A stretch of DNA of 64,000 nt from Dehalococcoidia bacterium (GTDB lineage Bacteria > Chloroflexota > Dehalococcoidia > Lucifugimonadales > UBA3495), in NCBI GenBank assembly GCA_965203435.1, contig CBDBCU010000005.1, positions 202,977 through 266,976 on the forward strand. Direction: 5' to 3'. Each line of letters begins with the position of its first letter. Positions within the stretch are counted from its first letter, which is position 1. Below are positions 3,021 through 25,667 of the stretch, one piece after another. The notes below the pieces were generated by a model that was not told where the DNA came from, ran no database searches, and worked only from the letters and a program-made list of their open reading frames with translations. Both the position numbers and the translations under genes were made by a program.

Positions 3021-3049
3021 GGCGGCCAAATGCCAAGCCATCCCCGCAA

Positions 3050-8525: not shown

Positions 8526-8589
8526 TATACACCGCCGGCGGGCGCGGCGCAAGGGCGGCGGCGCTGATTTCCTTTCTTGCCCCCTACCC

Positions 8590-11297: not shown

Positions 11298-12652
11298 GGC
11301 CCGCCCTCCGCCGCCGGCAGCTGATAAGTCTGCCGGAAAATCCGCAGGGCCGCCGGCAGAATGACCGCCGCAAAGACCAGGGCTTGAACGGTAAAGGCGA
11401 TGGCCGCGCCCTCGGCCCCTTGCCCCCGGGCCAGCCAGAAAATGACCGCCCCTTGGGCCGCCACGGCCGCCAGCAACGCCGCCAGATGCGGCCCGGCCCG
11501 CCCGGCCGCCGCCGGCAGCCCATACAAGGCCGACAGGCCGGCCAGAACCGCCGCCCCCGGCAGCATTATCAGCAACGAACTCCCGGCCGCGGCGAACTCC
11601 GGGCCGTAAAGCAGGCGGATAATCGGCTGATGCAGCAGAAACAGCAATCCATATCCCCCAACGGCCGCCACGACCGCCAGCAAGGTAAAGCGGCGGGACA
11701 GGCTCCGCAACACCGCCCCGTTAGCCCCGAACCACTGCCGGCTGTATTCCGCCTGCACCCCATAGGCCAAGGACCGGAAGGGCAGCACGGCGGCGTCAAT
11801 CACATAGCGGGCCGCCCGGTACAAACCCACCTGCGCCGGCCCGGTCAATCCCGCCAGCAGCAGGACATCGGCTTGAGTATGCAGGGCCTCGACCGAGGAA
11901 CGGCCAAAGGCAGCCAACTGAAAGCGCCGGATGTCCCGCGGCGCCCTTACCGACCAGGAGCGCAGCAGGCCCGGGATGCCGGCCGCCCCAGCAAAAACCG
12001 CCGCCAATAGCAGCAATCCGCCGCCCAACACGGCGGCCTTGACCACCGAGGCCAGGGCTACCGGCAACAGTCCGCCGCCGGCCAGGCCCACCCCCAGCAG
12101 CGCGATTACGCCGGCCAAAGCGCTGGCGGCGACCACCCCGAAACCCCAGCGCAATCGGTCGGCCAAGCGCAACACCGCCATGCTTTCCCCGGACACCGCC
12201 GTCAAAATTCCGGTAAGGCTGTAAATCAGCAGTACCGGCCCATAGGCGGCGTCGACCCAATTCAGCCAGCCGGCGGCGATCACGGTCAGCAGAGCAATCA
12301 GTCCGTAGGCCAGCAACCGCAAGCCCAACGCCGCGCCCAGCGCCAGCCGCAGCACCTGCCCGGCCTCCGCCCGCCGTCCGGCGGCAATGCTGCGCGTTAC
12401 ATAGGTGGTAATGACTTCCTCCCCCGGCATCGTCGCCAAGCCGAAAATCAGCGTAGCCGCGGCGATGATGATGACCAGTACGCCAAAATCCTCCGGCCCC
12501 AAAATCCGCGCCGCCAACGAAAACTGCGCCAGACTGCCCAGGGTCTGCGCCGCCGTCATTCCCCCCAGCCACAGGGTCTGCCGGGCGGCCCGCCGATTGG
12601 ATGGGGGCAAAAGCCGCTGGAGCAAATCGGCTGCGCCGTTTTTCAAGGCCAT
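11294..12652 (-). CDS. Polysaccharide flippase (MOP/Wzx superfamily)
   Basis: 452-aa protein with about 12-14 TM segments and typical Wzx-like hydrophobic composition. It is the first gene of the overlapping flippase-Wzy-GT4 operon. Confidence 0.75.
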   Translation of the reverse strand: MALKNGAADLLQRLLPPSNRRAARQTLWLGGMTAAQTLGSLAQFSLAARILGPEDFGVLVIIIAAATLIFGLATMPGEEVITTYVTRSIAAGRRAEAGQVLRLALGAALGLRLLAYGLIALLTVIAAGWLNWVDAAYGPVLLIYSLTGILTAVSGESMAVLRLADRLRWGFGVVAASALAGVIALLGVGLAGGGLLPVALASVVKAAVLGGGLLLLAAVFAGAAGIPGLLRSWSVRAPRDIRRFQLAAFGRSSVEALHTQADVLLLAGLTGPAQVGLYRAARYVIDAAVLPFRSLAYGVQAEYSRQWFGANGAVLRSLSRRFTLLAVVAAVGGYGLLFLLHQPIIRLLYGPEFAAAGSSLLIMLPGAAVLAGLSALYGLPAAAGRAGPHLAALLAAVAAQGAVIFWLARGQGAEGAAIAFTVQALVFAAVILPAALRIFRQTYQLPAAEGGP

Positions 12653-12809
12653 CTACTCCGTCGGTGTTTCCCGTCCCGCCGCCGCCATTCCGGGGCGCGG
12701 CATTGGGGATGCCCTTTTTATACCACAACTAAACCGCCGCTGCCACTAACCCCCGGCGGCAGATTCGGGCAATGGCGCAAAATACCCGTCCTTCCCGCCG
12801 CCCTCTCTA

Positions 12810-13076
12810 CCGTCCTTCCCGCGTACGCGGGAATCCCGCGCCGGCCTACCGTCATTCCCGCGTAAGCGGGAATCCCGCCGCCCCGCAACCATCAATCCCG
12901 CCGCCCTTTCTACCGTCATTCCCGCGTAAGCGGGAATCCCGCCGCCCCACAACCATCAATTCCGCCGCTCTTTCTACCGTCATTCTCGCGTAAGCGGGAA
13001 TCCCGCCGCTGCTGACGGATTCTGCGGTATCATAAGGCAATACCGTTCAGGATTCCCGCTTACGCGGGAAGGACGG
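12810..13076. repeat. Tandem array of family B repeat ends (four direct copies with a period of about 61 bp, plus one inverted copy)
   Basis: CTACCGTCATTCCCGCGTAAGCGGGAATCCCGCCGCC recurs. The intervening 25-bp segments are themselves similar to one another (CCGCAACCATCAATCCCGCCGCCCTTT vs CCACAACCATCAATTCCGCCGCTCTTT). Confidence 0.8.
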
Positions 13077-13099
13077 TAGCAAAGCCGCAACCACCCTAC

Positions 13100-13194
13100 T
13101 ATGTCATTCCGAGCGTAGCCGAGGAATCTAAAGATCCTGAAATGGATTCAAGGTCGGGCATTTCAGATTCCTCGGCTACGCTCGGAATGACATA
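13100..13194. repeat. Interspersed repeat family C (palindromic ends TATGTCATTCCGAGCGTAGCCGAGGAATCT)
   Basis: Near-perfect inverted ends flank a core of about 35 bp. Other copies lie at 25444..25537 (core inverted) and 47025..47118. Confidence 0.8.
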
Positions 13195-13228
13195 AGGGCG
13201 GAGTCGGCAGGCCATTGCCCCCTCGCCC

Positions 13229-15985
13229 TCACCGTTCTACCAGCAATTCCGCCGCCCACACTTCCCCTTGCCCCGGAACATACTGGCCGGTGCGAATTGC
13301 CTTGATGGGATAGTCCGGCAAAGGAATGGCGGCCAAGCATTTGCCATCGAAAAGGCCGCCGCGGCGGGCAAAGGCAAAGTCTAAATTGGCAAAGCCGGCG
13401 GCTTGCCGTTCTGCCGGCAAATCAGCCACATCCTCCGGGATAATGTGCAGGAAAAAGGCGGCCGCCGTATCCGCCGCGGCGCAGGTTTCCCGCAAGTAAA
13501 GCAGCCGGTCGTCTTGCCGGTACAGGTCAAAGACTGCCCGGGCCGCCGGGGGACGATCGGACAAAGCGGCGTAGGCCGCCCGCAGGATGCCGGGGTCGGC
13601 CGGCGGGTAGAGGTTGACCGCCCACCTCCCATCCTGCCCGGTGTGGATTTCCGCAAGGGGATAGTCGGGCAGGGGTACTATTGCCACGCACTCCCCACTG
13701 GGCCGTCCGCCATAATCCGACAGTCTGAAATCCCGGCTTTCGTAACCGCCGCCGCCTTGATAATCCGCCGGCAAATCGAACAACCTTTCCGGGTAGAGCC
13801 GCAGGGTTAGGCCGGTCGCATATTCAGCATCGGAGCAATCCCTTTTGGCGTAGAGCAGGCGGGGGCGGCCGGCAGTACCCCGGTCGAGGAAAACCTCAAA
13901 GGAATCCGGGCCGGCCGGCGGATTTTGCCGCCGATATTCAGCAATCAATTCCCCCAAGCCGGGCCGGGACAGGCTGTAAAGTTCCTCCCATAAAGGCAGA
14001 CCTACCGGCCCGAAGTTGCCCAAGTTGCGCTGACTCAGGATAAGATTGCCCGACACATAATCCGGCAGTTGGATAACCGCCAGGCAAAGCTCCCCCAAGC
14101 GTACCCGGTGATTGCTGAAAAGGTCATCGGCCCGGGAGCCGCGGAAAGGCAGCTGCCGGCTTTCCGCCGGCCGGGGCAGAACCTTGACGCCAAACCACCT
14201 ATCCCTTTCCGCCGCCGGGCAGTTTTCCCGTACAAAGGTCAGCCGTTGGCCGTAGCGATAAACCTTGTAATCAGCGCGGATAATGGGTTCGTTGGCAAGG
14301 GCATCGCGGTACAATTCCCGATAGGCGGCTTGGGCGGCGGCGGTCATCCGGGCGGCGTCCAGCGGCCGCAGGGCTATCAAGGTATTGTTATAAAAGCGGC
14401 GGGGATACGCCGAATTAAAAGCCACATCCGGGCGGCTGGAATCCAACTGATAAATCAGTTCATAATCGGCGTTGCGGCCGCCGTCGGCGGTAAGCAACCG
14501 CCGCCGCGCTTCCGGCGGCAGAACTTCCAATTGCCACCGCTGGGCTACCCGCGCGGTCAAGGTTTCCTCGGGATGAAGTTCGGTCAGATATTCCAATCCC
14601 TCCCGATGCGCCACGCTTACCGTGTCAATAAAATACTGCGTCCGCAGCTGTTCCGGGGTCGTCCGATCCGCCAGAAAGTTGAAATATACCTGCTGAAAGG
14701 GATGAATTTGCGCCATCGAGAGCAGTATCAATCCCAATCCCAAGCCGGCCAGCCCGTACACCCCGGCCAGCCCGATGCGCCGCCGGGCCAGGGCGGTCGT
14801 CATCCAATGCAGCCCCCCGGCCGCCAGCAGGCAAAAGGGCGCATAGATAAAATACAACTGCCGCCAGCCGATAGTCTGATTGGGGTTCAGCAGGGCGGCC
14901 GCCAGCAGCGGCAGCAGAAAGCAAGCCAGCAACACCAGTTGCAAGCGCAGCTTGGTATTGCAGAAAGCCGCTCCGGGCCGGCGGCAAATCCCGGCCGCGG
15001 CCGCCGCCATTCCTATAAAGCCCAGCAGCAATATCAACGGCGGCGTGGTGATGCCGAACCAGACCGCATTGTAATGCGGCGGCAGTTCATCGGACGGAAT
15101 CAATTCCCCCTGGAACAGCTGCGGCCAGACGGTGGGATGATTGACCGTCAAGTTAAGGCTGGTCGCTATATAGTCCACCGGGTTGGCCCAAGCGTAGGGC
15201 GCCAGAGCATACACCGTCAGCCCGCCGGTCAACAAGAACAGCCCGGCTGTTAATAGGATTCTTTTCCGTTGCGGCCCAGCTCCGGCATAAAACCAGTCCA
15301 TCCCGCGCAGGGCGATAACGGCGGGAAAGAGCATTATCCCCATAATCCGCAGGTTGGTCAGCAATCCCACCGCCACGCCCAGCAGGACAAAAGCCGCGAT
15401 AGTATCCTTGCGGAAAGCCCGTTCCAGCAGGTAAAGGGCAATCATCAACATACTGAGCAAGGGCAGGTCTTTGCTGTTGAGGTAGGAATTGACATAGATG
15501 CGGGGGTGCAGCAGGAAAAGCAGCAGGGTCAAAAGGGCAATCCCGCGGCTGCCGGTAAGCCGATAAGCCAGCCGCCAGCAAAAGAAAGCCCCAACGATAA
15601 AGAACAGGTGGGTAAGGGTTAAGCGGAGGCGGTGGGCATAGTAATAATCCTCCAATCCCAGCGCCTGCTCGGTCAACAGCAACGGCAGCTCAAAGGCAAT
15701 GCCGTAAAAGCGGTCGGAAGGTACAATCTGCCGGTCGTCCCCGGCGGTCTTGAGCCGGAAGTCGTCATAATCGGCGCGGCCCAATATATAGTCCAGGTTG
15801 GCCCGGGCGATTTGACGCTGGATCTGTTCATCGATGCCGCTGCCATAATCCCCAGCCAGGATAATGCCGGCCAGCAGAAAGAGGGCGCAGATAAGCAGGC
15901 CGCCGCGGTCGGCCAGGAAGTTCAACGCCGCCGCCCGGCCCCCGCCGGCCCAGGGCGGGGCTATATGACGCAGCGGCGGCAGCAT
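13229..15985 (-). CDS. GT-C fold (GT39/ArnT/PMT-like) membrane glycosyltransferase with three C-terminal Cys-pair repeat modules, paralogue 1
   Basis: Start set to MLPPLRH (15985) by alignment with the paralogue N-termini. First-loop acidic motif is GDYGSGIDE. Conserved block is LTHLFFIVGAFFCWRLAYRL...LLHPRIYVNSYLNSKDLP. The C-terminal half has three modules of the form ..(R/K)(E/D)xC..F(L)HI.P..DLP..DF.F..G.C.A..PLPDYP...I.TGQ. Confidence 0.85.
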   Translation of the reverse strand: MLPPLRHIAPPWAGGGRAAALNFLADRGGLLICALFLLAGIILAGDYGSGIDEQIQRQIARANLDYILGRADYDDFRLKTAGDDRQIVPSDRFYGIAFELPLLLTEQALGLEDYYYAHRLRLTLTHLFFIVGAFFCWRLAYRLTGSRGIALLTLLLFLLHPRIYVNSYLNSKDLPLLSMLMIALYLLERAFRKDTIAAFVLLGVAVGLLTNLRIMGIMLFPAVIALRGMDWFYAGAGPQRKRILLTAGLFLLTGGLTVYALAPYAWANPVDYIATSLNLTVNHPTVWPQLFQGELIPSDELPPHYNAVWFGITTPPLILLLGFIGMAAAAAGICRRPGAAFCNTKLRLQLVLLACFLLPLLAAALLNPNQTIGWRQLYFIYAPFCLLAAGGLHWMTTALARRRIGLAGVYGLAGLGLGLILLSMAQIHPFQQVYFNFLADRTTPEQLRTQYFIDTVSVAHREGLEYLTELHPEETLTARVAQRWQLEVLPPEARRRLLTADGGRNADYELIYQLDSSRPDVAFNSAYPRRFYNNTLIALRPLDAARMTAAAQAAYRELYRDALANEPIIRADYKVYRYGQRLTFVRENCPAAERDRWFGVKVLPRPAESRQLPFRGSRADDLFSNHRVRLGELCLAVIQLPDYVSGNLILSQRNLGNFGPVGLPLWEELYSLSRPGLGELIAEYRRQNPPAGPDSFEVFLDRGTAGRPRLLYAKRDCSDAEYATGLTLRLYPERLFDLPADYQGGGGYESRDFRLSDYGGRPSGECVAIVPLPDYPLAEIHTGQDGRWAVNLYPPADPGILRAAYAALSDRPPAARAVFDLYRQDDRLLYLRETCAAADTAAAFFLHIIPEDVADLPAERQAAGFANLDFAFARRGGLFDGKCLAAIPLPDYPIKAIRTGQYVPGQGEVWAAELLVER

Positions 15986-15992
15986 AGGCCGG

Positions 15993-16001
15993 ATTATAGC
16001 A
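15993..16001 (-). promoter_or_regulatory. Extended -10 (TGCTATAAT) 7 nt upstream of the ATG: leaderless-type promoter
   Basis: Minus strand reads TATGCTATAATCCGGCCT-ATG. The same arrangement precedes all four paralogues. Confidence 0.55.
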
Positions 16002-16100
16002 TAAGGGGATGGCGGTTCGGTTGCGGCCGCTTCATCCTTCAACCAGTTCAGGATGAGCGGAAACCCCGCCGTCACCCTTTTACCGTCCTTCCCAAGCCGC

Positions 16101-16228
16101 GGGGACGGATTCAAACATGGATAGACAGGATTCTCATATCTGATTAGAACGGTACTGGTCGTCAACCACCGTTCTACAGCTACCCAAAATCCTGTCTATC
16201 CTGTCTATCCATGTTTGAATCCGTCCCC
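16101..16228. mobile_element. MITE-like element, family A (long version of the inverted termini)
   Basis: GGGGACGGATTCAAACATGGATAGACAGGA ... TCCTGTCTATCCATGTTTGAATCCGTCCCC, between GT-C paralogues 1 and 2. Confidence 0.75.
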
Positions 16229-16237
16229 CCGCCCGCC

Positions 16238-19200
16238 TCAGGGGGACACCGGCAAAGTCACCACCCACAACTCCCCCTGGCCGGGGATGTGCTGGCCGGT
16301 GCGGATCGCTTTGACCGGGTAGTCGGGCAGGGGGACTGACGCCAGACACTTGCCGTCGATATGGCCGCCCCAATGGTCAAAGGCAAAATCCCGGTTGGCA
16401 AAGCCGGCGGCTTGCCGTGCCGGGGGCAAATCGGCGGTATTTTCCGGGATGATATGCAGGATAAAGCCGGCCGCCGTATCCGCCGCCGCGCAGGATTCCC
16501 GCAAATAAATCAGCCGGTTGTGGCGCAGATACAAGTCATAGACCGCCCGGGCCGCCGGCTCCCGCTTGGCTAAAGACTGATATACCGCCGCCAAGCGGCC
16601 CGGGTCGGCCGGCGGGTACAAGTCCGCAGCCCATACTCCGGCCTGCCCGGTGCGGATTGATGCGATGGGATAGCCGGGCAGAGGAACTGCCGCCAGACAC
16701 TTGCCGTCAAAAGAGCCGCCCCAACGCTCAAAAACAAAATCCCGGTTGTCAAAGCCGACCGGCCGCCGTTCCTCCGGCAATACGGCGGCATCCTCCGGGA
16801 CTATGTGCAGGAAAAAGCCGGCCGCCGTGTCCGCCGCCGCGCAGGATTCCCGCAAATAAATCAGCCGATTATCCCGCAGATACAGGGCAAAGGCGGCTTG
16901 AGCCGACGGTTGACTTGCGGACACGGCGGCATAGACCCCTTGCAAGACGCCGGGGGCGGCCGGCGGATACAAGTTGACTTCCCAACCCTCCTCTTGCCCG
17001 GTGCGGATGGCGGCTACGGGATAATCGGGCATCGGGACGGCCGCCAGACATTCCCCATCCAACCGGCTGCCATAACGCGCCAGAGAAAAATCCCGGTTGT
17101 CCTGGCCGCTTTTCCAGAGGTAGAAAGGCAAATCCGCCGGATTTTCCGGGTAGATATGCAGGAATACCGGGGTTTCGTATGCGGCGGTAGAACAGTCGCC
17201 TTTGGCGTAAAGCAGGCGCTGGCGGCCCGCCGCCCGGTCAAGGAAAACGGCAAAAGCCTCCGGCGCGGCCGGATCCGGCCGCCCTTGCGCGCTCAGTTCC
17301 CACAGGCCGGGTTGCGACAGGCTGTAAAACTTTTCCCACACCGGATCCCCCTCCGGCTCGTATTGGCCCAGGTTGCGCCGGGACAGGATGATGTCGCCGC
17401 CGGCCGCCGCCGGCAGTTGGATAACCGCCAGGCAAAGCTCCCCCAGCTGTACCCGGTGATTGCTGAAAGATGCCGCGGGGCCGGGCTGCCACCAATCCGG
17501 CGGCGCGGTTTCCGGGGCCGGCGGAAAGGGCCGGACGCCAAACCAGGCCTCGGGAGCCGCCGGGGGGCAGTTTTCCTTGACCAAAACCAGCCGATGGCCC
17601 TGACGATAAACATTATAATCGGCGCGGATAATGGGTGCATCGGCTAGGGCTTGCTGATATATTTCCCGGTAGGCGGCTAGGGCGGCGGCGGTCATCCGGG
17701 CGGCGTCCATGGGCCGCAAGGCGACCAGGGGATTGGCATAGCGGCGGATATAACGGGCATTAAAGGCCAAGTCGGGCCGGCTGCGGTCGTTCCCTTGCTC
17801 CACCAATTCATAATCGGCGCGGCGGTCGGGGCCGGCAATAAGCAAATCCCGCCGGGCCGCCGCCGGCAGAATTTCCCAATGCCGCGCATAGTCCATCCGC
17901 ACCGCCAGCGTCTCCCCGGGATGCAATTCCCGCAGATATTCCAACGCATCCCGGTGCGCCAGCTGCCAGTAATCCAAATCATACTGCGCCCCCAGCGCCC
18001 CCGGCGTAGTCCGATCGGTCAGAAAGTTGAAATAAACCGGCTGCAAAGGATGCAGTTGTATCAGCTGCAACAGCAGCAATACCAAGCCGGCCGCCGCCAG
18101 CCCGTACATCCCCACCCGCCAACGCCGCCGCCGGGATAGAGCGGCCGCCAGCCAACCGCCGCCCAGGGCCGCCAGCAGGCAGAAAGGCGCATAGAGGAAA
18201 TAGAAATGCCGCCAACCGTCGTACTGATTGGCATCCAGCAGGATGGCCGCCAGCGGCGGCAGCAGGAAAGCGGCCAACAGCAGTAGCAGAAAGCGCATCC
18301 GGCCGTTGCGGAAAACCGCCCCGGGCCGGCGGATACCCTCTACCGCTACCGCCGCCATCCCGACCAGTCCCAGCAGCAGAAACAGCGGCGGCGTGGTGAT
18401 AGCAAACCAGGTGGCGGCGTAATGCGGCGGCAGCTCGTCGGAAAACAGCCATTCCCCCTGGAATAGCTGCGGCCAGATAGTCGGATGATTGACCGTCAAG
18501 GCAAAGTTAGCGGTCAGATAGTCAATAGGATTAGTCCAGGCGTAGGGCGACAGGGCGTACACCGTCAGTCCGGCGGTCAAGGTGAACAGCCCGGCGGTCC
18601 GTAGGATTCCTTTCCGTTCTTGCCAAGTCCCGGCGTAAAACCAATCCAATCCCCGCATTGCCAAGACCGCCGGCAGCAGCATTAGCCCCATAATCCGCAG
18701 GTTGGTCAGCGCTCCCACCCCTATCCCCAGCAGCAGGAAAGCGCCAATCGTATCCCGGCGGAAAGCCCGTTCCAGCAGGTAGAGGGCTATTGCGAACAGG
18801 GTGAGAAAAGGCAGGTCTTTGGAATTGACGAAAGAATGGCCGTAGATGCGGGGATGCAGCAGGAAAAGCAGCAGGGCTAACAGGGCAATCCACCGATTGT
18901 TGAACAGCCGCCAAGCCAGCCGGTAGCAACAGAAAGCCCCGACGATAAAGAACAGGTGGGTCAGCGTTAGGCGCAGCCGGTGGACATAATGGTAATCCTC
19001 GATCCCCAAGACGCGCTCGGCCAATAGCAGCGGCAGCTCCAAGGCCATGCCATAAACCCGGTCGTGGTAATGGTAGATATTCCGATCCAGGCGGTCGGCT
19101 TGCCCCCGGATATAGTCCAGATTGACCGCGGCCGTTTGCCGCTGATTCGGCTCATCGGGGCCGATGCCGTAATCCCCGGCCGTGGCCAAGCCGACCAGCA

Positions 19201-19306
19201 GAAAAAGGGCGCAAAGCAGCAGGCCGCTGCGGGCGGCAAAAAAGTTCAGCGCCGCTTGTCTCCGGCCGGCCCGTGGCAGGGATATGGAAAGCGGCGGCAG
19301 GAACAT
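16238..19306 (-). CDS. GT-C fold membrane glycosyltransferase with four C-terminal Cys-pair repeat modules, paralogue 2
   Basis: Start at MFLPPLSISLPRAG (19306). The architecture matches paralogue 1. One extra copy of the LIYLRESCAAADTAAGF(F/I)LHI.PE module accounts for the greater length. Confidence 0.85.
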   Translation of the reverse strand: MFLPPLSISLPRAGRRQAALNFFAARSGLLLCALFLLVGLATAGDYGIGPDEPNQRQTAAVNLDYIRGQADRLDRNIYHYHDRVYGMALELPLLLAERVLGIEDYHYVHRLRLTLTHLFFIVGAFCCYRLAWRLFNNRWIALLALLLFLLHPRIYGHSFVNSKDLPFLTLFAIALYLLERAFRRDTIGAFLLLGIGVGALTNLRIMGLMLLPAVLAMRGLDWFYAGTWQERKGILRTAGLFTLTAGLTVYALSPYAWTNPIDYLTANFALTVNHPTIWPQLFQGEWLFSDELPPHYAATWFAITTPPLFLLLGLVGMAAVAVEGIRRPGAVFRNGRMRFLLLLLAAFLLPPLAAILLDANQYDGWRHFYFLYAPFCLLAALGGGWLAAALSRRRRWRVGMYGLAAAGLVLLLLQLIQLHPLQPVYFNFLTDRTTPGALGAQYDLDYWQLAHRDALEYLRELHPGETLAVRMDYARHWEILPAAARRDLLIAGPDRRADYELVEQGNDRSRPDLAFNARYIRRYANPLVALRPMDAARMTAAALAAYREIYQQALADAPIIRADYNVYRQGHRLVLVKENCPPAAPEAWFGVRPFPPAPETAPPDWWQPGPAASFSNHRVQLGELCLAVIQLPAAAGGDIILSRRNLGQYEPEGDPVWEKFYSLSQPGLWELSAQGRPDPAAPEAFAVFLDRAAGRQRLLYAKGDCSTAAYETPVFLHIYPENPADLPFYLWKSGQDNRDFSLARYGSRLDGECLAAVPMPDYPVAAIRTGQEEGWEVNLYPPAAPGVLQGVYAAVSASQPSAQAAFALYLRDNRLIYLRESCAAADTAAGFFLHIVPEDAAVLPEERRPVGFDNRDFVFERWGGSFDGKCLAAVPLPGYPIASIRTGQAGVWAADLYPPADPGRLAAVYQSLAKREPAARAVYDLYLRHNRLIYLRESCAAADTAAGFILHIIPENTADLPPARQAAGFANRDFAFDHWGGHIDGKCLASVPLPDYPVKAIRTGQHIPGQGELWVVTLPVSP

Positions 19307-19313
19307 AAGCCGG

Positions 19314-19322
19314 ATTATAGCA
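19314..19322 (-). promoter_or_regulatory. Extended -10 (TGCTATAAT) 7 nt upstream of the ATG: leaderless-type promoter
   Basis: Minus strand reads TATGCTATAATCCGGCTT-ATG. Confidence 0.55.
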
Positions 19323-19374
19323 TACCCTCTTACCGTCCTTCCCGCGCCTTTCCAATGTATTCCCGCGGCCCCCA

Positions 19375-19474
19375 CCGTCATTCCCGCGTAAGCGGGAATC
19401 CCGAAATGCCTTGCCGCAAGCCGGCTTGTCTGACGCAGTACCGTCCTGGATTCCCGCTTACGCGGGAATGACGG
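19375..19474. repeat. Interspersed repeat family B
   Basis: CCGTCATTCCCGCGTAAGCGGGAATCCCG ... GGATTCCCGCTTACGCGGGAATGACGG, between paralogues 2 and 3. Confidence 0.8.
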
Positions 19475-19535
19475 TAGGGGGAGTACGGTAAAGGCATCGG
19501 GAAGGACAGGGTTTTAATGCCTTTGCCTGCCCGCC

Positions 19536-22277
19536 TCAGTGCCCAACCCTCAACTCCGCCGCCCACACCTCGCCTCGGCCCGGAACATATTGCCCCGTCC
19601 GCAGGGCGGCGATGGGATAGTTGGGCAAGGGAATAGCGGCCAGGCATTTGCCCTCAAAATGCCCGCCCCGGCGGTCAAAGGCAAAATCCATATTGGCAAA
19701 GCCGGCATCCCGCCGCTCCGGCGGCAAATCGGCGACATCCGCCGGGAGGATATGCAGGAAAAAGCCGGCCGCCGTATCCGCCGCCGCGCAGGATTCCCGC
19801 AAATAAATCAATCGGTTATCCTGAATATACAGGTCAAAATCAGCCCGGATCTGAGGTTGCCGGTCGGACAAGGCGGCGTACGTGGCCCGCAAACGCTCCG
19901 GGGCGGCCGGCGGATATAAATTGAATTCCCACAATCCGGCCGCGCCGGTATGCAGGGCAGCGATGGGATATTCGGGCAGGGGAACTAGCGCCAGACAGCC
20001 CCCGCCGGGCTGGATGCCGTAACGCGCCATCGGAAAATCCCGGTTCTCCTGCCCCCCGGCCCAGCGGTAAAAGGGCAGGTCGGCCCGGTTCTCCGGGTAG
20101 ATATGCAGGAAAATCCGGCGGGCAAAATCGGCGGGGGAACATTCCTCTTTGTCATAAAGCAGGCCCGGCCGGCCGGCATCGTCCCGGCCCAGGAAAACGG
20201 CAAAAGCGTCCGGATCGGCCGGCGGCGGCCGCCGCCGCCCCTGGTCGAGCCATTCCCCCAAGCCAGGGCGGGTGATGCTGTAGAGTTCATCCAGCCATAC
20301 CGGTTTTTCCCCCGGCCCGGGCGGGCCGGAGCCGCGCTGACTCAGGATTAGCTCGCCCTGAGTGGCGGCCGGCAGTTGGATAACCGCCAGGCAGACCGCG
20401 CCCAGCCGCACCGGTTGGCGGTGGTAGGAGGTATGGAAGCCGGGTTCCCATAAACCGGTCGGCAGAATTTCCTGGCGGGGCGGGAAAACCTTGACGGTGA
20501 ACCAGACCTCGTCCCGTTCCGGGCGGCAATCCTCCCGCACAAAAGCGATCCGGCCATCCTTAAAATAAACATCATAATTGCCGCGGATAATGGGTTCTCC
20601 GGTTAGGGCTTGCCGGTAAATTTCTTGATAGGCGGCCCGGGCCGCCGCCGTCATCCGGTCGCTGTCCCGCGGCTGCAGGACGGCCAGGGTGTTGTTATAA
20701 AAGCGGCGCGGATAGGCCGAATTAAAGGTCAAATCCGGCCGGCTGGGCTCCGGCTGATGGGTCAGGTAATAATCGGCGCTACGGCCGCCGGCTAGCGGCA
20801 ATCGCCGCCGCGCCGCCGGCGGCAGCGCGCCCCACAGCTCCCGATACTCCGTCCGCACCGCCATGGTTTCGCCGGGGTAGCGCGCCAGCAGATATTGCAA
20901 CGCCGGCCCTTGCGCCGACTGCCAGTAGTCCATTTCATACTGCGCCCGCAGCCCTTCCGGGGTCGTCCGATCCACCAGAAAGTTGAAATAAATATGCTGC
21001 AAGGGATGGAGCTGAGCCATCTGGAGCAGAAGCAACCCGAAACCCAATCCGGCCAGGCCATACATCCCGACCCGGAATCGCCGCCGTTGCCGGGCCAGGG
21101 CGGCGGTCAGCCCGCCCATACCTCCGGCCGCCAGCAGGCAAAAGGGGGCGTAGCTGAAATAAAGATGCCGCCAATCGTCGTACTGATTGGATCCCAACAG
21201 GGCGGCGGCCAGGGCCGGCAGCAGGGCAGCCGCCAGCAGCAGCCCGGCAAAGCGCAGCCGGCCGTTGCGGAAAGCGGCCCCGGGCCGGCGGCCAACCCGC
21301 GCCACGACCACCGCCGCGCCGATGCCGCCCAGCAAGGGAATCAAGGGCGGCGCCGTAATCAGAAACCAGGTCGGCAAGTAATGAAAGGGCAATTGATCCG
21401 AGGGAATCCGCTGCCCCTGGAACAGCACCGACACCACGGTGGGATGATTGACCGTCAAGTCCAGACTGCCGGCCAGATAATCTACCGGGTCAGGCCAGGC
21501 ATAGGGGGTTACCGCATACCAGGTCAGCCCGGCCGCCAAGAGGAATATCCCGCCGGTCCGCCATATCCCTTTTCGTTCCGGCCCGCTAGTCGCATAAAAC
21601 AAATCCAATCCCCGCATCGCCAGCGCCGCCGCCAACAGCATTACCCCCATAATCCGCAGGTTGGTCAGCAATCCCACGGCTATTCCCAGCAGGACAAAAG
21701 CCCCGACCGTGTCCCGGCGGAAAGCCCGTTCCAGCAGATAGAGGGCTAGCACAAGCATACTGAGAAAGGGCAGGTCTTTGCTGTTGATAAAGGAATGGGC
21801 GTAGATGCGGGGGTGCAGCAGGAAAAGCAGCAGAGCCAGGATAGCCAGCGGCCGATTGCGGAACAGGCGGTAAGCCAGGCGGTAAAAAAAGAAAGCGCCG
21901 ACAATAAAGAACAGGTGGGTCAGGGTTAAGCGGAGCCGGTTGACATAGTGCAAATCCTCCCAGCCCAACGCCCGCTCCGCCAGCAGCAGCGGCAGCTCAA
22001 AGGCTATGCCATAAAACCGGTCGGAGGATACCAGAGCATCCCGGCCGTTAAAGACCAGGATGCCGTCGGCCCGGCCCAAGATATAATTTACATTGGCCTC
22101 AGCAATCAGGCGCTGGGTTGCCTGGTCGGCGCCAATGCCATAATCCCCGACCAGGGCCAAGCCGGCCAGCAGAAAAAGGCCGCAAATCAGCAGGCCGCTG
22201 TGGGCGGCCAAGAAGTTCAGCGCCGCCCGGCCCCGGCCGGCCCGTGGCAGGGATATGGAAAGCGGCGGCGGGAACAT
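19536..22277 (-). CDS. GT-C fold membrane glycosyltransferase with three C-terminal Cys-pair repeat modules, paralogue 3
   Basis: 913-aa ORF starting MFPPPLSISLPRAG, with the same conserved blocks as paralogues 1 and 2. Confidence 0.85.
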   Translation of the reverse strand: MFPPPLSISLPRAGRGRAALNFLAAHSGLLICGLFLLAGLALVGDYGIGADQATQRLIAEANVNYILGRADGILVFNGRDALVSSDRFYGIAFELPLLLAERALGWEDLHYVNRLRLTLTHLFFIVGAFFFYRLAYRLFRNRPLAILALLLFLLHPRIYAHSFINSKDLPFLSMLVLALYLLERAFRRDTVGAFVLLGIAVGLLTNLRIMGVMLLAAALAMRGLDLFYATSGPERKGIWRTGGIFLLAAGLTWYAVTPYAWPDPVDYLAGSLDLTVNHPTVVSVLFQGQRIPSDQLPFHYLPTWFLITAPPLIPLLGGIGAAVVVARVGRRPGAAFRNGRLRFAGLLLAAALLPALAAALLGSNQYDDWRHLYFSYAPFCLLAAGGMGGLTAALARQRRRFRVGMYGLAGLGFGLLLLQMAQLHPLQHIYFNFLVDRTTPEGLRAQYEMDYWQSAQGPALQYLLARYPGETMAVRTEYRELWGALPPAARRRLPLAGGRSADYYLTHQPEPSRPDLTFNSAYPRRFYNNTLAVLQPRDSDRMTAAARAAYQEIYRQALTGEPIIRGNYDVYFKDGRIAFVREDCRPERDEVWFTVKVFPPRQEILPTGLWEPGFHTSYHRQPVRLGAVCLAVIQLPAATQGELILSQRGSGPPGPGEKPVWLDELYSITRPGLGEWLDQGRRRPPPADPDAFAVFLGRDDAGRPGLLYDKEECSPADFARRIFLHIYPENRADLPFYRWAGGQENRDFPMARYGIQPGGGCLALVPLPEYPIAALHTGAAGLWEFNLYPPAAPERLRATYAALSDRQPQIRADFDLYIQDNRLIYLRESCAAADTAAGFFLHILPADVADLPPERRDAGFANMDFAFDRRGGHFEGKCLAAIPLPNYPIAALRTGQYVPGRGEVWAAELRVGH

Positions 22278-22284
22278 AGGGCGG

Positions 22285-22293
22285 ATTATAGCA
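22285..22293 (-). promoter_or_regulatory. Extended -10 (TGCTATAAT) 7 nt upstream of the ATG: leaderless-type promoter
   Basis: Minus strand reads TATGCTATAATCCGCCCT-ATG. Confidence 0.55.
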
Positions 22294-22300
22294 TAAGGGG

Positions 22301-22476
22301 GCGGGCGGATCTTTTCCGCTCATCCTGAACTTGTTGAAGGATGAGCGGAAAAGATCCGCCCGCTTATCCTTAACCGGCAAGGATGTTACCACTATCCGCC
22401 CATCCTGAGCCGGTTGCAGGATTGGCAGTGATTTTCCGCTCATCCTGAACTTGTTGAAGGACGAGCGGAAAATCAC
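22301..22476. repeat. Interspersed repeat family D (core CCGCTCATCC-TGAACTTGTTGAA-GGATGAGCGG), two copies embedded in long palindromes
   Basis: 22301..22325 pairs perfectly with 22339..22363 (25-bp stem, 13-nt loop). 22428..22445 pairs with 22459..22476 (18 bp, one mismatch). A degenerate copy lies between them. Confidence 0.8.
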
Positions 22477-22484
22477 TTCCAACC

Positions 22485-25205
22485 CTACCTTTCCACCCTC
22501 AACTCCGCCGCCCACACCTCGCCCTGGCCCGGAACATATTGCCCCGTCCGCAGGGCGGCGATGGGATAGTCCGGCAAGGGAACGATGGCCAGACATTTGC
22601 CGTCAAAAGCGCCGCCATAGCGGGCAAAGGGAAAGTCCAAGTTGGCAAAGCCGGCCGGCCGCCGTTCCTGCGGCAAATCGGCAATATCCTGCGGGAGGAT
22701 ATGCAGGAAAAAATCGGCCGCCGTATCCGCCGCCGCGCAGGTTTCCCGCAGGTAAATCAGCCGATTATCCTGGAGATACAGGGCAAAATCCGACAGGGCG
22801 GCCGGGATATGGTCGGACAGGGCGGCGTAAGTGGCCCGCAAATCATCCGGGTTGGCCGGCGGGTATAGAGTGGCCGCCCACATCCCGGCTTGGCCGGTGC
22901 GGATTTCGGCGATGGGATAGGTCGGCAGGGGGATGGCGGCGATACAATCCCCGCCGGGCCGGCCGCCATAAACATCCAACAGAAAATCCCGATTGTCAAA
23001 GCTGTTGCCCCGGTTGTAGGCCGGCAAATCCGCCAAATCCGCCGGGGTGATATGCAGGGTTACGCGGGTTTCGTATTCGGATTGAGTGCAACCCGCTTTG
23101 GCATAAAGCAGGCGCGGCCGGCCGGCGGCATCCCGGTCGAGGAAAACCGCAAAGGCATCCGGATTTGGCGGCGGCTGTTGCTGCCGCAACCGGGCCATCC
23201 GTTTCCCCAAGCTAGGGCCGGCCAAGGTATAAAGTTCCTCCCACAAGGGCCAATCCGCCGGCCCGAAGTTGCCCAAATTGCGCCGGGTAATAATCAAATC
23301 GCCCGCAATATCCGGCGGCAGTTGGATAACCGCCAGGCAAACCTCGCCCAGTCGTACCCGGTGATTGTAGTAAGGGGCATAAAACACCGCTTGCCGGGAA
23401 TAGGGCGGCAAGGATTTCGCCGCCGCCGGGAAGGGCTTGACGCCGAACCACTCATCCCGGCCGCCCGGCGGACAGTTTTCCCGAACAAAAGTCAGCCGGT
23501 TATCCGCCAGATAAACCTTATAATCGGCGCGGATAATGGGTTCGCCGGCTACGGCATCACGGTAAATTTCCCGATAGGCGGCGATAGCGGCCGGCGTCAT
23601 CCGGGCGGCGTCCAGCGGCCGCAGGGCTATGATGGTATTGCTGTAAAGGCGGCGGCGGTAAGCCGTATTAAAGGCCAAATCCGGCTGGAAAGATTCCAGC
23701 GGATAAATCAGTTCATAATCGGCGCTGCGGCCGCCGGTGGCTGGCAGCAGCCGCTCCCGGGCCGCCGCCGGCAAAATGCCCAGATGCCGCTGCCCGACCC
23801 GCACCGTCAAGGTTTCCTGGGGATGCCTTTGCCGCAGATATTCCAATCCCGCCCGGTGCGCCAGCTGCATATAGTCCAGGTCATACTGCGTCCGCAGCCG
23901 CTCCGGCGTCGTCCGCTCGGCCAGAAAGTTGAAATAGACCGGCGGCAAGGGATGAATTTGCGCCATTTGCAGTACCACCAGCCCCAAGCCCACGCCGGCC
24001 AATCCATACATCCCGGCGGCTCGCCGCCAGCCTTGCCGGTACAGAGCGGCCGTCAGACCACCCATGCCCGCCGCCGCCAGCAGGCAAAAGGGGGCATAAA
24101 TGAAAAACAAATGCCGCCAGCCCTCGGATTGATTGGAACCCAGCACGGTAGCCGCCAGCGGCGGCAGCAGAAAGCAAGCCGCCAGCAACAGCAGCAAGCG
24201 CATCTTGGTGTTGCGGAAAACCGTCCCGGGCCGGCGGATTCCCCGGGCCGCTACCAGCGCCATCCCGATAAATCCCAGCAGCAAAATCAGCGGCGGCGTG
24301 GTAATGCCAAACCAGGTGGCGGTGTAATGCGGCGGCAGTGCGTTGGACAGCAGTAATTCCCCCTGAAACAACTGCGGCAACACCGCCGGATGATTGACCG
24401 TCTGGCCCAGGCTGGTGACCAGGTAGTCCACCGGATTAGCCCAGGCATAGGGCGTTGCCGCGTACAAAGTCAGACCGGCGGCCAAGGCGAACAGGCCGGC
24501 GGTCCACAGGATTCGCTTTCGTTCCGGCCAATGCCCGGCATAAAAGCAATCCAATCCCCGCATTGCCAACGGCGCCGCCACCAGCATTAGCCCCATAATC
24601 CGCAGGTTGGTCAGCACGCCCACCGCTGCGCCCAGCAGCAGGAAAGCCCCGAGGGTGTCTTTGCGGAAAGCCCGTTCCAGCAGGTAGAGGGCAATCAGGA
24701 ACATACTGAGAAAGGGCAAGTCTTTGAAGTTGACGAAAGAATGGCCGTATATGCGGGGATGCAACAGCAGGAACAGCAGGGCCAGGATTGCCAGCGGCCG
24801 ACTGCCGAACAGCCGATAAGCCAGCCGATAGCCAAAGTAAGCGCCGACAATAAAGAACAGGTGGGTCAGGGTTAAGCGCAGGCGGTGGATTTGGGAATAA
24901 TCCTCCAATCCCAGGAGCCGCTCCGCCAGCAGCAGGGGCAGCTCAAAAGCCACGCTATAGACCCGATCCTGATACAGGTCGGTGGCAATGCGGTCGGAAT
25001 GGCCCCGGATGTAGTCCAGATTGGCCCGGGCAATCCGCCGCTGCGGCCATTCATCGTAGTTAATGCCATAATCCCCGGCCGCAGCCAGTCCCACCAGCAG
25101 AAAGAGGATACAGACCAGCAGGCCACAGCGGGCGGTCAAAAAGTTCAGCGCCGCCGGACTGCGGCCGGAAAGTTGCCGGAATATGCGGCGCAGCGGCGGG
25201 AACAT
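22485..25205 (-). CDS. GT-C fold membrane glycosyltransferase with three C-terminal Cys-pair repeat modules, paralogue 4
   Basis: 906-aa ORF starting MFPPLRRIF, with the same conserved blocks. Confidence 0.85.
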   Translation of the reverse strand: MFPPLRRIFRQLSGRSPAALNFLTARCGLLVCILFLLVGLAAAGDYGINYDEWPQRRIARANLDYIRGHSDRIATDLYQDRVYSVAFELPLLLAERLLGLEDYSQIHRLRLTLTHLFFIVGAYFGYRLAYRLFGSRPLAILALLFLLLHPRIYGHSFVNFKDLPFLSMFLIALYLLERAFRKDTLGAFLLLGAAVGVLTNLRIMGLMLVAAPLAMRGLDCFYAGHWPERKRILWTAGLFALAAGLTLYAATPYAWANPVDYLVTSLGQTVNHPAVLPQLFQGELLLSNALPPHYTATWFGITTPPLILLLGFIGMALVAARGIRRPGTVFRNTKMRLLLLLAACFLLPPLAATVLGSNQSEGWRHLFFIYAPFCLLAAAGMGGLTAALYRQGWRRAAGMYGLAGVGLGLVVLQMAQIHPLPPVYFNFLAERTTPERLRTQYDLDYMQLAHRAGLEYLRQRHPQETLTVRVGQRHLGILPAAARERLLPATGGRSADYELIYPLESFQPDLAFNTAYRRRLYSNTIIALRPLDAARMTPAAIAAYREIYRDAVAGEPIIRADYKVYLADNRLTFVRENCPPGGRDEWFGVKPFPAAAKSLPPYSRQAVFYAPYYNHRVRLGEVCLAVIQLPPDIAGDLIITRRNLGNFGPADWPLWEELYTLAGPSLGKRMARLRQQQPPPNPDAFAVFLDRDAAGRPRLLYAKAGCTQSEYETRVTLHITPADLADLPAYNRGNSFDNRDFLLDVYGGRPGGDCIAAIPLPTYPIAEIRTGQAGMWAATLYPPANPDDLRATYAALSDHIPAALSDFALYLQDNRLIYLRETCAAADTAADFFLHILPQDIADLPQERRPAGFANLDFPFARYGGAFDGKCLAIVPLPDYPIAALRTGQYVPGQGEVWAAELRVER

Positions 25206-25212
25206 AGGCGGA

Positions 25213-25221
25213 ATTATAGCA
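25213..25221 (-). promoter_or_regulatory. Extended -10 (TGCTATAAT) 7 nt upstream of the ATG: leaderless-type promoter
   Basis: Minus strand reads TATGCTATAATTCCGCCT-ATG. Confidence 0.55.
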
Positions 25222-25256
25222 TAAGGGGGGCCAGCAACCGTCCTTCCGCCTCCCGA

Positions 25257-25356
25257 CCGTCATTCCCGCGTAAGCGGGAATCCCGAACGGTACTGCCTTA
25301 TAATGCCGCATCCCCGGCAAGTCACCGCGGGATTCCCGCTTACGCGGGAATGACGG
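25257..25356. repeat. Interspersed repeat family B
   Basis: Inverted CCGTCATTCCCGCGTAAGCGGGAATCCCG ends. The core (..TGCCTTATAATGCCGCA..) resembles the copy at 3050. Confidence 0.8.
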
Positions 25357-25443
25357 TAGGGGCGGCCGGGATGACGGTAGAGTGGACGGGAAGGACGGTA
25401 AGGGGGCGGCGGGAAGGACGGTACTAGGGGCGCAACCACCCAC

Positions 25444-25537
25444 TATGTCATTCCGAGCGTAGCCGAGGAATCTGAAATGCCCGACCTTGACTCCATTTCA
25501 AGACTTTTAGATTCCTCGGCTACGCTCGGAATGACAT
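25444..25537. repeat. Interspersed repeat family C
   Basis: TATGTCATTCCGAGCGTAGCCGAGGAATCT ... AGATTCCTCGGCTACGCTCGGAATGACAT. Confidence 0.8.
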
Positions 25538-25667
25538 CCTTCAACAAGTTCAGGATGAGCGGAAAGGGAATAGCCTATCCGGGACAACGGCAAAAGCCGC
25601 CACCCCCCGCCCAAGCAAGGAATGGCGGCAAAGGGTTTTCCGGTGGGCAACCGGCGGTTGCGCCCCC

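Follow-up and report, generated by a model that had tools for sequence, protein, structure and literature searches.

Tandem GT-C-fold glycosyltransferase paralogues of a SAR202 bacterium carry a C-terminal Cys-pair module of a large unannotated family

A four-gene array with GT-C membrane domains

In the genome of an uncultured SAR202 (Dehalococcoidia) bacterium, four long intact ORFs follow one another head-to-tail on the minus strand, at positions 13229-25205 of the 64-kb stretch of DNA that we analysed (the window). What do four consecutive genes for apparent membrane glycosyltransferases encode, and what is the repeated domain with which their products end? The ORF list of the window gives spans of 13229-16165 (G1), 16238-19381 (G2), 19536-22277 (G3) and 22485-25205 (G4), of which the first two start too far upstream. 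Indeed, an identical extended -10 box, TGCTATAAT, ends 7 nt before an ATG in each gene (minus strand; 25213-25221 for G4, 22285-22293 for G3, 19314-19322 for G2 and 15993-16001 for G1), which places the likely start codons at 25205 (G4), 22277 (G3), 19306 (G2) and 15985 (G1). The TTG-initiated ORF listed for G1, reaching 16165, is a read-through of a REP-like repeat. Counted from the likely ATGs, the products are 918 (G1, 13229-15985), 1022 (G2, 16238-19306), 913 (G3, 19536-22277) and 906 (G4, 22485-25205) amino acids long, in agreement with the range of 906-1022 given in the original prediction, and are 62-67% identical over their full length.

The TGCTATAAT box occurs exactly six times in the window, where 0.2 occurrences are expected, and four of the six are those at the starts of G1-G4. 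TATAAT-N7-ATG recurs at family genes of the SAR202 relatives L002, L003, L012, L014 and L041. Since a scan of the array for consensus promoters and terminators gave nothing above chance, it is this conserved box that makes the argument for promoters; it suggests that each of the four genes has its own promoter and a leaderless mRNA.

The N-terminal halves belong to the GT-C superfamily, as had been proposed, and profile, predicted topology and predicted fold agree on this. Pfam PMT_2 (PF13231) matches all four proteins above its cut-off of 26.1 bits (36.1, 33.0, 36.1 and 27.8 bits in G1-G4). A full-length AF2 model of G4 (pLDDT 82.8, pTM 0.75) gave 20 PDB matches at E<=1e-3 in Foldseek, 19 of them GT-C enzymes; STT3, PglB, ArnT, AftA and Pmt4 matched with E values of 2e-5 to 5e-4, and the best target-normalised TM-score, 0.53, was to Pmt4. 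Query-normalised scores were modest (~0.3), because the query includes the repeats. AF2 helices together with hydropathy predict 11 transmembrane helices, a cytoplasmic N-terminus and an outside location for the C-terminal 486 residues. In keeping with the positive-inside rule, K/R residues are frequent in the N-terminus and in every second loop, and external loop 4 (50 aa) has none. In G4 the transmembrane domain takes up approximately residues 1-420 (23946-25205), followed by a juxtamembrane alpha/beta domain (residues 421-536) and three copies of the repeated module.

The first external loop of GT-C enzymes is where the acceptor is activated and where the phosphate of the polyprenyl-phosphate-sugar donor is bound. 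The acidic motif that had been pointed out, GDYG...D51-E52, falls in the predicted first external loop, and both it and the LHPRIY..S..N.KDLP block are present in all four paralogues. D45 and D51 are invariant in G1-G4, and D51 is kept in 59 of 68 aligned family members. By analogy with characterized GT-C enzymes, G1-G4 would use a polyprenyl-phosphate-linked sugar.

The closest well-described systems are the ArnT/PMT_2-type GT-C_A enzymes (PF13231, CAZy GT83/GT39-like), such as Cupriavidus ArnT (5ezm/5f15) and fungal Pmt4 (9i5k). G1-G4 have in common with them the polytopic N-terminal domain, the first-loop acidic residue, the PMT_2 match, a superposing predicted fold and a soluble C-terminal part predicted on the non-cytoplasmic side. 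They differ, however, in family signatures: the ArnT equivalog NF009784 scored only in G3 in the NCBIfam search (10.5 bits against a cut-off of 567), and PMT (PF02366) reached 21.3 bits in G1 and 19.5 in G3, below its cut-off of 22.7, with no match in G2 or G4. They differ also in occurring as tandem arrays and in that their soluble part consists of three or four Cys-pair modules (2-10 elsewhere), found in no solved GT-C structure. A Pfam match of G2 to Subtilosin_A is spurious (19.8 bits against 25, with no stretch passing).

An alternative is protein O-glycosylation of the kind carried out by PMT or actinobacterial Pmt: the enzymes would modify secreted or S-layer proteins as they emerge from the membrane, and the modules would bind the protein acceptor, in the role that MIR plays in eukaryotic PMTs. 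The best Pfam families (PMT_2 and, just under threshold, PMT), the 11 predicted helices, a number shared with PMTs, the TM-score to Pmt4 and the D-E pair in loop 1 all speak for it. The sub-threshold PF02366 scores, however, speak against it, as does the absence of a MIR domain: Pfam gave no MIR match in G1-G4, and the corresponding loop (residues 251-300) has just ~50 residues.

The Cys-pair module and its family

A profile HMM of the last module detects four significant copies in G2 and three in each of G1, G3 and G4, as in the original prediction. They lie on the minus strand at 13232-14308 in G1 (m3 13232-13606, m2 13607-13918, m1 13991-14308), 16241-17650 in G2 (m4 16241-16615, m3 16616-16966, m2 16967-17275, m1 17312-17650), 19539-20603 in G3 (m3 19539-19913, m2 19914-20222, m1 20268-20603) and, in G4, at 22488-22862 (terminal copy, residues 782-906) and 22863-23561 (m2 22863-23174, m1 23226-23561). 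The extra module of G2 is a tandem duplication of the terminal type (TRF period 351 bp, 2.1 copies, 16316-17050). Alignment of the 13 copies reproduces the pattern described before, a unit of ~110 residues with two invariant cysteines and the motif FFLH.xPxDxxDLP...GFxNxDFxF...G...G.C.A..PLPDYPI..IRTGQ. The last module is, as claimed, the best conserved part (mean identity among paralogues 72%, against 68% for the transmembrane domain and 55-56% for inner modules).

The AF2 model of the terminal module of G4 (pLDDT 96.4, pTM 0.89) has one helix and eight strands, predicting a helix plus an Ig/FnIII-like beta-sandwich. The two invariant cysteines of each module probably form one disulfide. Foldseek found no match at E<=1e-3 in PDB or BFVD (best E=0.019 in BFVD); the best in PDB was the FnIII domain of EpoR (E=0.012, TM 0.47). 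The module has the general beta-sandwich topology of Ig/FnIII domains, including also the Ig-like domain of beta-galactosidase (best TM 0.44-0.49), but these matches are insignificant (E>=0.012), and the module has an extra N-terminal helix and a conserved motif of its own. Sequence searches agreed. Pfam-A 2025, Ig-like families included, matched neither the C-terminal halves of the four proteins nor, at E<=0.1, any of 78 diverse modules; NCBIfam 20 did not match the module; profile searches of PDB gave E=1.1 at best for the module and chance matches only for module and full-length profiles. We found no significant similarity of the module to a known carbohydrate-binding module or lectin. The module thus stays, as originally stated, unassigned to any domain family or structure of Pfam-A 2025, NCBIfam 20 or the PDB. 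We also considered a T9SS-type C-terminal sorting domain, and rejected it, because the module comes in tandem copies, belongs to polytopic membrane proteins and occurs in phyla that are not known to have T9SS.

How widespread is the module? An exhaustive profile search (E<=1e-3) found it in 2,137 representative proteins (clusters at 50% identity). Each of them has 2-10 copies, nearly always placed at the very C-terminus and ending within a few residues of the protein end. Both Cys1 and Cys2 occur in all of the 921 modules examined, and 918 modules have exactly two cysteines. An earlier one-module search had given a misleading picture of 'stand-alone' modules, with just 33 short, mostly fragmentary proteins; in the exhaustive search the dominant architecture is GT-C plus modules. 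GT-C fusions make up most of the representative proteins and approximately half of the module-bearing ORFs in module-selected loci, which were retrieved with a degenerate DNA pattern for LPDYPxxxxRTGQ. For family loci, a contig search worked with the four-paralogue alignment; with the single protein G4 it returned no matches. Tandem gene arrays recur, with up to ~7-10 copies. No homologue carried a name in the sources searched, and a literature search combining sponge with GT39, GT83, PMT_2 and COG1807 found no description of a module-bearing GT-C family.

Fusions of the module to arylsulfotransferase (ASST), GDSL/SGNH, Wzy_C and polysaccharide-deacetylase domains occur as well. The module is, therefore, not a specific feature of these transferases but a promiscuous C-terminal extracytoplasmic domain of a large family with several unrelated enzyme partners. 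These partners bear on the protein O-glycosyltransferase reading too, since SGNH, deacetylase and Wzy_C suggest substrates that are glycans, not proteins.

MAGs from at least eight phyla encode the module. The taxa include SAR202/Dehalococcoidia, Tepidiformaceae, Caldilineaceae, Binatia, Latescibacterota, Gemmatimonadota, Nitrospirales, Vicinamibacterales, Spirochaetia and several proteobacterial orders, a mix that suggests a sponge microbiome. The Obg protein encoded in the window shares 79% identity with its counterpart in a SAR202 bin from the sponge Aplysina aerophoba. A tentative reading, which we regard as possible though on balance doubtful, is that the module is a habitat-specific extracytoplasmic domain, exchanged horizontally between unrelated lineages of one host-associated community, that targets a surface-tailoring toolkit to a common ligand. 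This ligand would lie in the symbiont envelope or the host matrix; the toolkit would comprise the GT-C arrays, aryl-sulfotransferases, SGNH acyl-esterases/transferases, Wzy-like proteins and deacetylases, and together they might form a shared 'surface-disguise' system for living inside a phagocytic host.

The same distribution, the Obg identity, the fusion to unrelated enzymes, the Ig/FnIII-like predicted fold and the conservation of the terminal copy could instead mean that the repeat string is an adhesin-like device for interaction with host or matrix, common to the bacteria of one habitat. It would then tether surface enzymes or the cell to the host extracellular matrix and say little about the acceptor of the GT-C domain. 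We consider this improbable: the share of GT-C fusions among representatives and module-locus ORFs means that the link to GT-C is not incidental, and we found no similarity of the module to known adhesin domains.

Genomic setting and selection

Directly downstream of G1-G4 and on the same strand are genes for a Wzx-like flippase (Polysacc_synt, 32 bits against 28.2; 11294-12652, with a 97% identical orthologue in L041), a Wzy_C membrane protein resembling O-antigen polymerases/ligases (53.7 bits against 31.7; 9702-11297) and a cytoplasmic GT4 glycosyltransferase (Glycos_transf_1, 85.4 bits; 8590-9705), the genes expected of a Wzx/Wzy-dependent surface-glycan locus. An initiating phosphoglycosyltransferase was not among the window ORFs scanned. 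The context first described is thus accurate for the window, but the link goes no further than the close relative L041: tblastn found the Wzx/Wzy/GT4 adjacency at none of 39 other family loci. Directly upstream of the array (25668-26639) is a gene for a secreted Cys-rich protein, with homologues beside a family gene in L003.

The outer-face GT-C enzymes of multi-component extracytoplasmic glycan decoration, such as three-component GtrA/GtrB/GtrC-type systems, offer a second comparison (reviewed in PMC8035078, PMC11127046). As in these, an outer-face GT-C would add polyprenyl-phosphate-borne sugars to an exported surface polymer, with paralogous GT-Cs giving different decorations, and in the window a Wzx/Wzy cluster adjoins the genes. 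Unlike GtrC-type enzymes, however, G1-G4 carry a Cys-pair repeat domain, and neither a GtrA-like flippase nor a GtrB-like GT2 was found among ~50 window ORFs of at least 110 aa scanned with Pfam. The donor pathway is, therefore, not visible locally, and GtrA/GtrB-type components may lie elsewhere in the genome.

The genes are separated by repeat-filled spacers. The G1-wzx spacer (12653-13228) contains REP-like palindromic repeats, including a 64-bp unit in 2.6 copies, and the spacers at 15986-16237, 19307-19535, 22278-22484 and 25206-25667 are similar. They are built of at least four REP/MITE-like palindromic families with 25, 21, 6 and 14 hits across the 64-kb window. The spacers do hold repeats, as reported, but not a different family each: some families are common to several spacers, and the repeats, seen throughout the window, are genome-wide REP-like elements rather than gene-specific ones.

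L041 keeps orthologues of G1-G3 in the same order at 88-89% amino acid identity (89% for G3). Their dN/dS is 0.25-0.30 and well below 1 in every region; these genes are under purifying selection. The terminal module has the lowest dN/dS in G1 and G2, and in G3 it is close to the lowest (0.26 against 0.27 in the transmembrane domain). The original prediction suggested that the paralogues are a battery whose repeats could select different acceptors. GT-C enzymes with repeated modules they are, but the repeats are not singled out as the diversified, acceptor-selecting part, because the terminal module is the most conserved and, between orthologues, the repeats do not exceed the transmembrane domain in dN/dS, the latter evolving as fast.

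The dN/dS of the GT-C genes is, however, 3-4 times that of wzx, wzy and gt4 (0.06-0.11). This, and the mobile-looking repeats between the genes, would fit an array of decaying or redundant duplicates, one active gene with relics and no specialisation. Such an origin is hardly credible. No ORF of the four is interrupted, the catalytic-loop and Cys residues are conserved, each gene keeps the same promoter box, and selection acts on G1-G3 in their conserved order in another strain; orthologue clusters of G4, G1 and G2 at 84-92% identity occur in other assemblies. We rejected decay into pseudogenes on the intact ORFs and the low dN/dS.

A predicted role at the cell surface

The explanation that we prefer, with a probability of about 0.6 for the whole, is that G1-G4 are functional paralogous GT-C-fold glycosyltransferases, predicted to depend on polyprenyl-phosphate sugars and to decorate a glycan or glycoprotein of the cell surface; the modules would serve outside the cytoplasm for binding or as spacers. 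Working as ArnT, PglB, PMT and Aft/Emb do, each paralogue would take a lipid-linked sugar already flipped to the outer face and move it to an acceptor outside the cytoplasmic membrane, likely a cell-surface glycan or glycoprotein. In this lineage the adjacent Wzx/Wzy_C/GT4 genes may make that acceptor. After TM11 the chain would pass through the small alpha/beta domain into three or four beta-sandwich modules projecting away from the membrane; the last, conserved copy would bind a common ligand of the envelope or matrix, and the inner ones, which vary more, would set the reach. We infer a binding or spacer role from architecture, because other extracytoplasmic enzymes that modify glycans or the surface also end in the module, and the number of copies varies from 2 to 10.

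A comparable layout is known in mycobacterial Emb/AftD arabinosyltransferases, where a GT-C membrane domain is followed by extracytoplasmic beta-sandwich domains, and Emb, like AftA, is among the Foldseek matches of the G4 model. The C-terminal carbohydrate-binding modules of Emb/AftD are thought to hold the growing glycan. We found, however, no sequence relation to Emb/AftD and no significant fold match of the module to their carbohydrate-binding modules, and the number and regularity of the repeats, like the invariant Cys pair, set the module family apart.

Dehalococcoidia-type cells without peptidoglycan are expected to depend on protein surface layers, which would favour a protein acceptor. 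Sponge SAR202 genomes are reported to lack peptidoglycan genes (PMC6306507), and the secreted Cys-rich protein encoded next to the array could be read in the same way. With the Wzx/Wzy genes downstream, and the absent MIR domain and glycan-directed module partners noted above, we nevertheless hold protein O-glycosylation to be unlikely as the main function, and retain decoration of a surface glycan or glycoprotein as our reading. The missing peptidoglycan genes count for this reading too, as does the abundance of GT83-type GT-C enzymes, which are among the most abundant glycosyltransferase families of sponge Chloroflexi (PMC6306507).

The module defines a new, previously unannotated domain family of at least 2,100 clusters at 50% identity, with a confident predicted fold and an invariant Cys pair, and merits an entry in Pfam/InterPro irrespective of what it does. 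Most surface glycans of bacteria are built or decorated by GT-C enzymes, and the ligands of the extracytoplasmic domains of these enzymes are known for few. Module-bearing tandem arrays recur in uncultured lineages for which a lack of peptidoglycan has been reported. Should the modules bind a glycan or matrix, they would offer a way into the question of how such bacteria make and vary their surfaces. If the restriction to one habitat is true, the family would also bear on how sponge symbionts are distinguished from food bacteria.

Start sites of the tandem genes

We noted four long ORFs occupying positions 13229-25205 on the minus strand of the window, with pairwise identities of 62-67% across essentially their full length (BLASTP). 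All four share TGCTATAAT-N7-ATG, exactly where the paralogue alignment starts, and the N-terminal extension of the first ORF, G1, is a REP-like repeat in translation. For these reasons, the listed starts of G1 (TTG at 16165) and G2 (ATG at 19381) were rejected as too far upstream; the likely products from the revised ATGs are of 918 aa for G1 (13229-15985) and 1022 aa for G2 (16238-19306), while G3 (19536-22277) and G4 (22485-25205) encode 913 and 906 aa, all from the minus strand. The TGCTATAAT nonamer occurs exactly six times in the window, versus 0.2 occurrences expected by chance, and four of the six lie at the starts of these genes, as an extended -10 box 7 nt before the ATG (15993-16001, 19314-19322, 22285-22293 and 25213-25221 for G1 to G4, minus strand). 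The remaining two copies are at 43025-43033 (minus) and 47386-47394 (plus). TATAAT-N7-ATG is also found ahead of family genes at loci of SAR202/Dehalococcoidia relatives (L002, L003, L012, L014 and L041), and is absent from the family genes of more distant lineages, where the genes abut one another. The motif in the array and its recurrence in relatives suggest that G1-G4 may have separate promoters and leaderless mRNAs; a scan of the array for consensus promoters and terminators gave no added support for promoters.

At least four families of REP/MITE-like palindromic repeats occupy most intergenic spacers of the window and inflate ORF calls, as at the spurious N-terminus of G1. Their cores are TTCCCGCGTAAGCGGGAA (25 matches), CCGCTCATCCTGAAC (21 matches), CATTCCGAGCGTAGCCGAGGAATC (three inverted pairs) and GGATAGACAGGAT (14 matches, mostly inverted pairs with 75-95 bp spacing). 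Repeats fill the spacers around the array (12653-13228, 15986-16237, 19307-19535, 22278-22484 and 25206-25667), and others at 3049-3207, 26796-27012, 30849-31045, 43070-43202, 44420-44538, 47030-47346, 48395-48561, 49666-49825, 54094-54721, 55643-55790 and 59027-59145. Imperfect tandem repeats, GAGGAGGG-rich and with periods of 12, 24, 36 and 48 bp, lie at 41375-41840 and 51020-51136, within or beside the small ORFs 41099-41656 and 50741-51286.

A GT-C half joined to two-cysteine modules

The N-terminal half of all four paralogues exceeds the gathering score of Pfam PMT_2 (PF13231); the ArnT equivalog of NCBIfam scored far under its cut-off. G4 was modelled with AlphaFold2 from a 68-sequence alignment (mean pLDDT 82.8, pTM 0.75), and comparison of the model with the PDB returned 20 matches at E<=1e-3, all except one of them GT-C enzymes, namely STT3 of OST complexes, PglB, ArnT, AftA and Pmt4; Emb and DPY19 scored just below. 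Helix positions and hydropathy predict 11 transmembrane helices, and K/R residues are concentrated at the N-terminus and in alternate short loops, a 50-residue external loop being free of them. The helix count and this K/R distribution place the first loop and the entire C-terminal 486 residues outside the cytoplasm in the predicted topology. The first loop carries the motif GDYG...D51-E52, in which D51 is kept in 59 of 68 diverse family members, and the LHPRIY..S..N.KDLP block of the original prediction is indeed invariant in all four paralogues.

Protein O-glycosylation of the PMT type is the main rival to the best-supported reading given below. Eleven helices would suit it, and Pmt4 is the closest structure by target-normalised TM-score; the MIR domain, however, is missing, and the match to PMT (PF02366) stayed slightly under its Pfam score in the scan of G1-G4. 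The rival also draws on a predicted secreted, Cys-rich product whose gene immediately precedes G4 in the same orientation (25668-26639, minus). This ORF, of 323 aa, matches nothing in Pfam; it is hydrophobic over a segment at the N-terminus and contains several Cys. The closest relative genome has homologues of 47-51% identity at two places in L003, adjoining a family gene and roughly 7 kb away. The product could be a partner or acceptor protein.

Behind TM11, the G4 model continues through a disordered linker into a small alpha/beta domain (aa ~445-536) and then the repeats. With an HMM made from the terminal modules of all four proteins, 3, 4, 3 and 3 copies were detected in G1, G2, G3 and G4, and the alignment of these 13 copies reproduced the predicted module motif, both Cys, residues 42 and 90 in module numbering, being invariant. 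In each protein the module that comes first is degenerate but retains both Cys, and the fourth module of G2 is a tandem duplicate of the terminal type, with a 351-bp period. For one terminal module, a model built from 78 diverse sequences of the module (pLDDT 96.4, pTM 0.89) predicts an N-terminal helix and, after it, eight strands. Foldseek gave no significant match in either the PDB or BFVD; the best PDB fold match was the FnIII domain of the erythropoietin receptor (E=0.012, TM 0.47, not significant), and Ig-like domains of beta-galactosidase reached a likewise non-significant TM of 0.44-0.49. None of the 78 modules matched Pfam at E<=0.1, NCBIfam left the module unmatched, and a PDB profile search gave a chance match only. 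The modelled fold is thus a generic Ig/FnIII-like sandwich and, since none of these searches gave anything significant, its family is undescribed in Pfam, NCBIfam, the PDB and BFVD.

The module family in other genomes

A word-indexed search with G4 yielded homologues of 900-1,550 aa, at least 1,301 in number, to which no source gives any name. When 1.84 billion representative proteins were searched exhaustively with a profile, the module was found in 2,137 of them at E<=1e-3 and in 1,660 at E<=1e-10, with 2-10 copies per protein. Both Cys are present in 921 of 921 high-scoring modules, 918 of which have exactly two. The last module stops within a few residues of the C-terminus (301 retrieved proteins), and in full-length proteins the first begins at about residue 500-650, an arrangement of GT-C domain plus modules. 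Tandem arrays of the GT-C family recur in species-representative genomes, with 7 copies in 23.5 kb at L005, about 7 at L006, 6 at L012, about 10 across the overlapping L015 and L016, and 5-6 at L019, L031 and L033.

The module also serves as C-terminal domain outside GT-C proteins. Where loci were chosen solely by module DNA pattern, a GT-C domain is present in 87 of the 178 ORFs that bear the module. Other partners are arylsulfotransferases (ASST; L023 5207-7324 and 8976-10898, L181 404-2158, L199 2708-5509, L204 1054-2982), GDSL/SGNH proteins (L146 3688-7326, L153 445-2238, L154, L188), the Wzy_C protein P0154, which bears 10 copies, and P0271, which has a polysaccharide-deacetylase domain; many further module proteins have an N-terminal part without a Pfam match. 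Non-GT-C fusions were found in MAGs of Spirochaetia, Dehalococcoidia, Vicinamibacterales, Nitrospirales and Pseudomonadales. Judged by their domains, the fusion partners would all be enzymes acting on extracytoplasmic glycans or surface molecules. This pattern, together with variable copy number and the conserved distal copy, supports a putative role of the modules in targeting or reach.

Evolution, habitat and likely function of the array

At L041, orthologues of the three genes G3, G2 and G1 are arranged as in the window, with the flippase, Wzy_C and GT4 genes (wzx, wzy and gt4) next in line; the contig starts at the G3 orthologue, so a G4 orthologue, if present, would lie beyond its end. 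Between these two strains (window 8590-22277), amino-acid identity is 88-89% for the GT-C genes versus 96-99% for wzx, wzy and gt4, and dN/dS, compared at similar dS (0.14-0.28), is 0.25-0.30 versus 0.06-0.11; protein evolution in the array is thus 3-4 times as fast as in the adjoining genes. The raised dN/dS is distributed across the transmembrane domain and the repeats alike. In G1 and G2 the strongest constraint falls on the terminal module (0.17 and 0.22), and in G3 its value comes near the lowest (0.26 versus 0.27 for the transmembrane domain); among the paralogues this module is the most conserved region (72%), inner modules being the least (55-56%). These patterns indicate that G1-G4 are functional, fast-evolving and anciently duplicated genes, and the repeat region does not appear from them to be a special target of diversification.

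An ORF without a Pfam match (7557-8912, minus) has a counterpart after gt4 in L041 (82-89% identity) and holds 21-bp and 63-bp tandem repeats at 7993-8339 (12.8 copies of the 21-bp unit). Just downstream of the glycan genes, a 1045-aa ORF (4601-7738, minus) with an N6_Mtase domain at aa 603-717 is a candidate methyltransferase of a defence type, perhaps a large fused restriction-modification enzyme.

The window is chromosomal, and also encodes Obg, SecD/SecF, CtaA, CobS, a CCA-adding enzyme and a UbiA-family prenyltransferase, possibly CtaB. Elsewhere in it are a HicB-like antitoxin with an HTH domain (33770-34228, plus) and a 476-aa protein with Ion_trans and PKD_channel domains (117-1547, minus), apparently resembling a voltage-gated or polycystin-like cation channel, which looks unusual in a Dehalococcoidia genome. 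Obg is 89% identical to that of Dehalococcoidia MAG OZ251531.1 and 79% to that of 'SAR202 cluster bacterium bin22' (MPMM01), which comes from the sponge Aplysina aerophoba (PMC5649159). Family or module matches were found in MAGs of Chloroflexota (Dehalococcoidia, Tepidiformaceae, Caldilineaceae), Binatia, Latescibacterota, Gemmatimonadota, Nitrospirales, Vicinamibacterales, Spirochaetia and several alpha- and gammaproteobacterial groups. This mix of taxa is typical of high-microbial-abundance sponges, and the module may be restricted to that habitat and have spread horizontally. Bayer et al. (PMC6306507) report that sponge SAR202 genomes have no genes for peptidoglycan synthesis and that, among the GT families of sponge Chloroflexi, GT2, GT4 and GT83 rank as most abundant; the missing genes and abundant GT83 fit an expanded GT-C repertoire, and proteins of the G1-G4 type are not described in that paper.

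In the best-supported reading, each paralogue would be a putative polyprenyl-phosphate-sugar-dependent transferase at the outer face of the cytoplasmic membrane, with a surface glycan or glycoprotein as acceptor, and the repeat string may be an extracytoplasmic, disulfide-stabilised binding or spacer device. No GtrA/GtrB-type partner genes were seen among the ORFs scanned in the window, and adjacency of the GT-C genes to wzx, wzy and gt4 is confined to its lineage among the family loci compared. The original observation and its annotation-level interpretation were borne out; the functional idea has to be modified, the module being a widespread, promiscuous new domain and not a specificity determinant particular to GT-C enzymes. 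The novelty lies in the combination: enzymes of a familiar class carry domains of an undescribed family and are organized in distinctive multiple copies. Its interest would rise should the suspected restriction to one habitat and exchange between phyla prove true.
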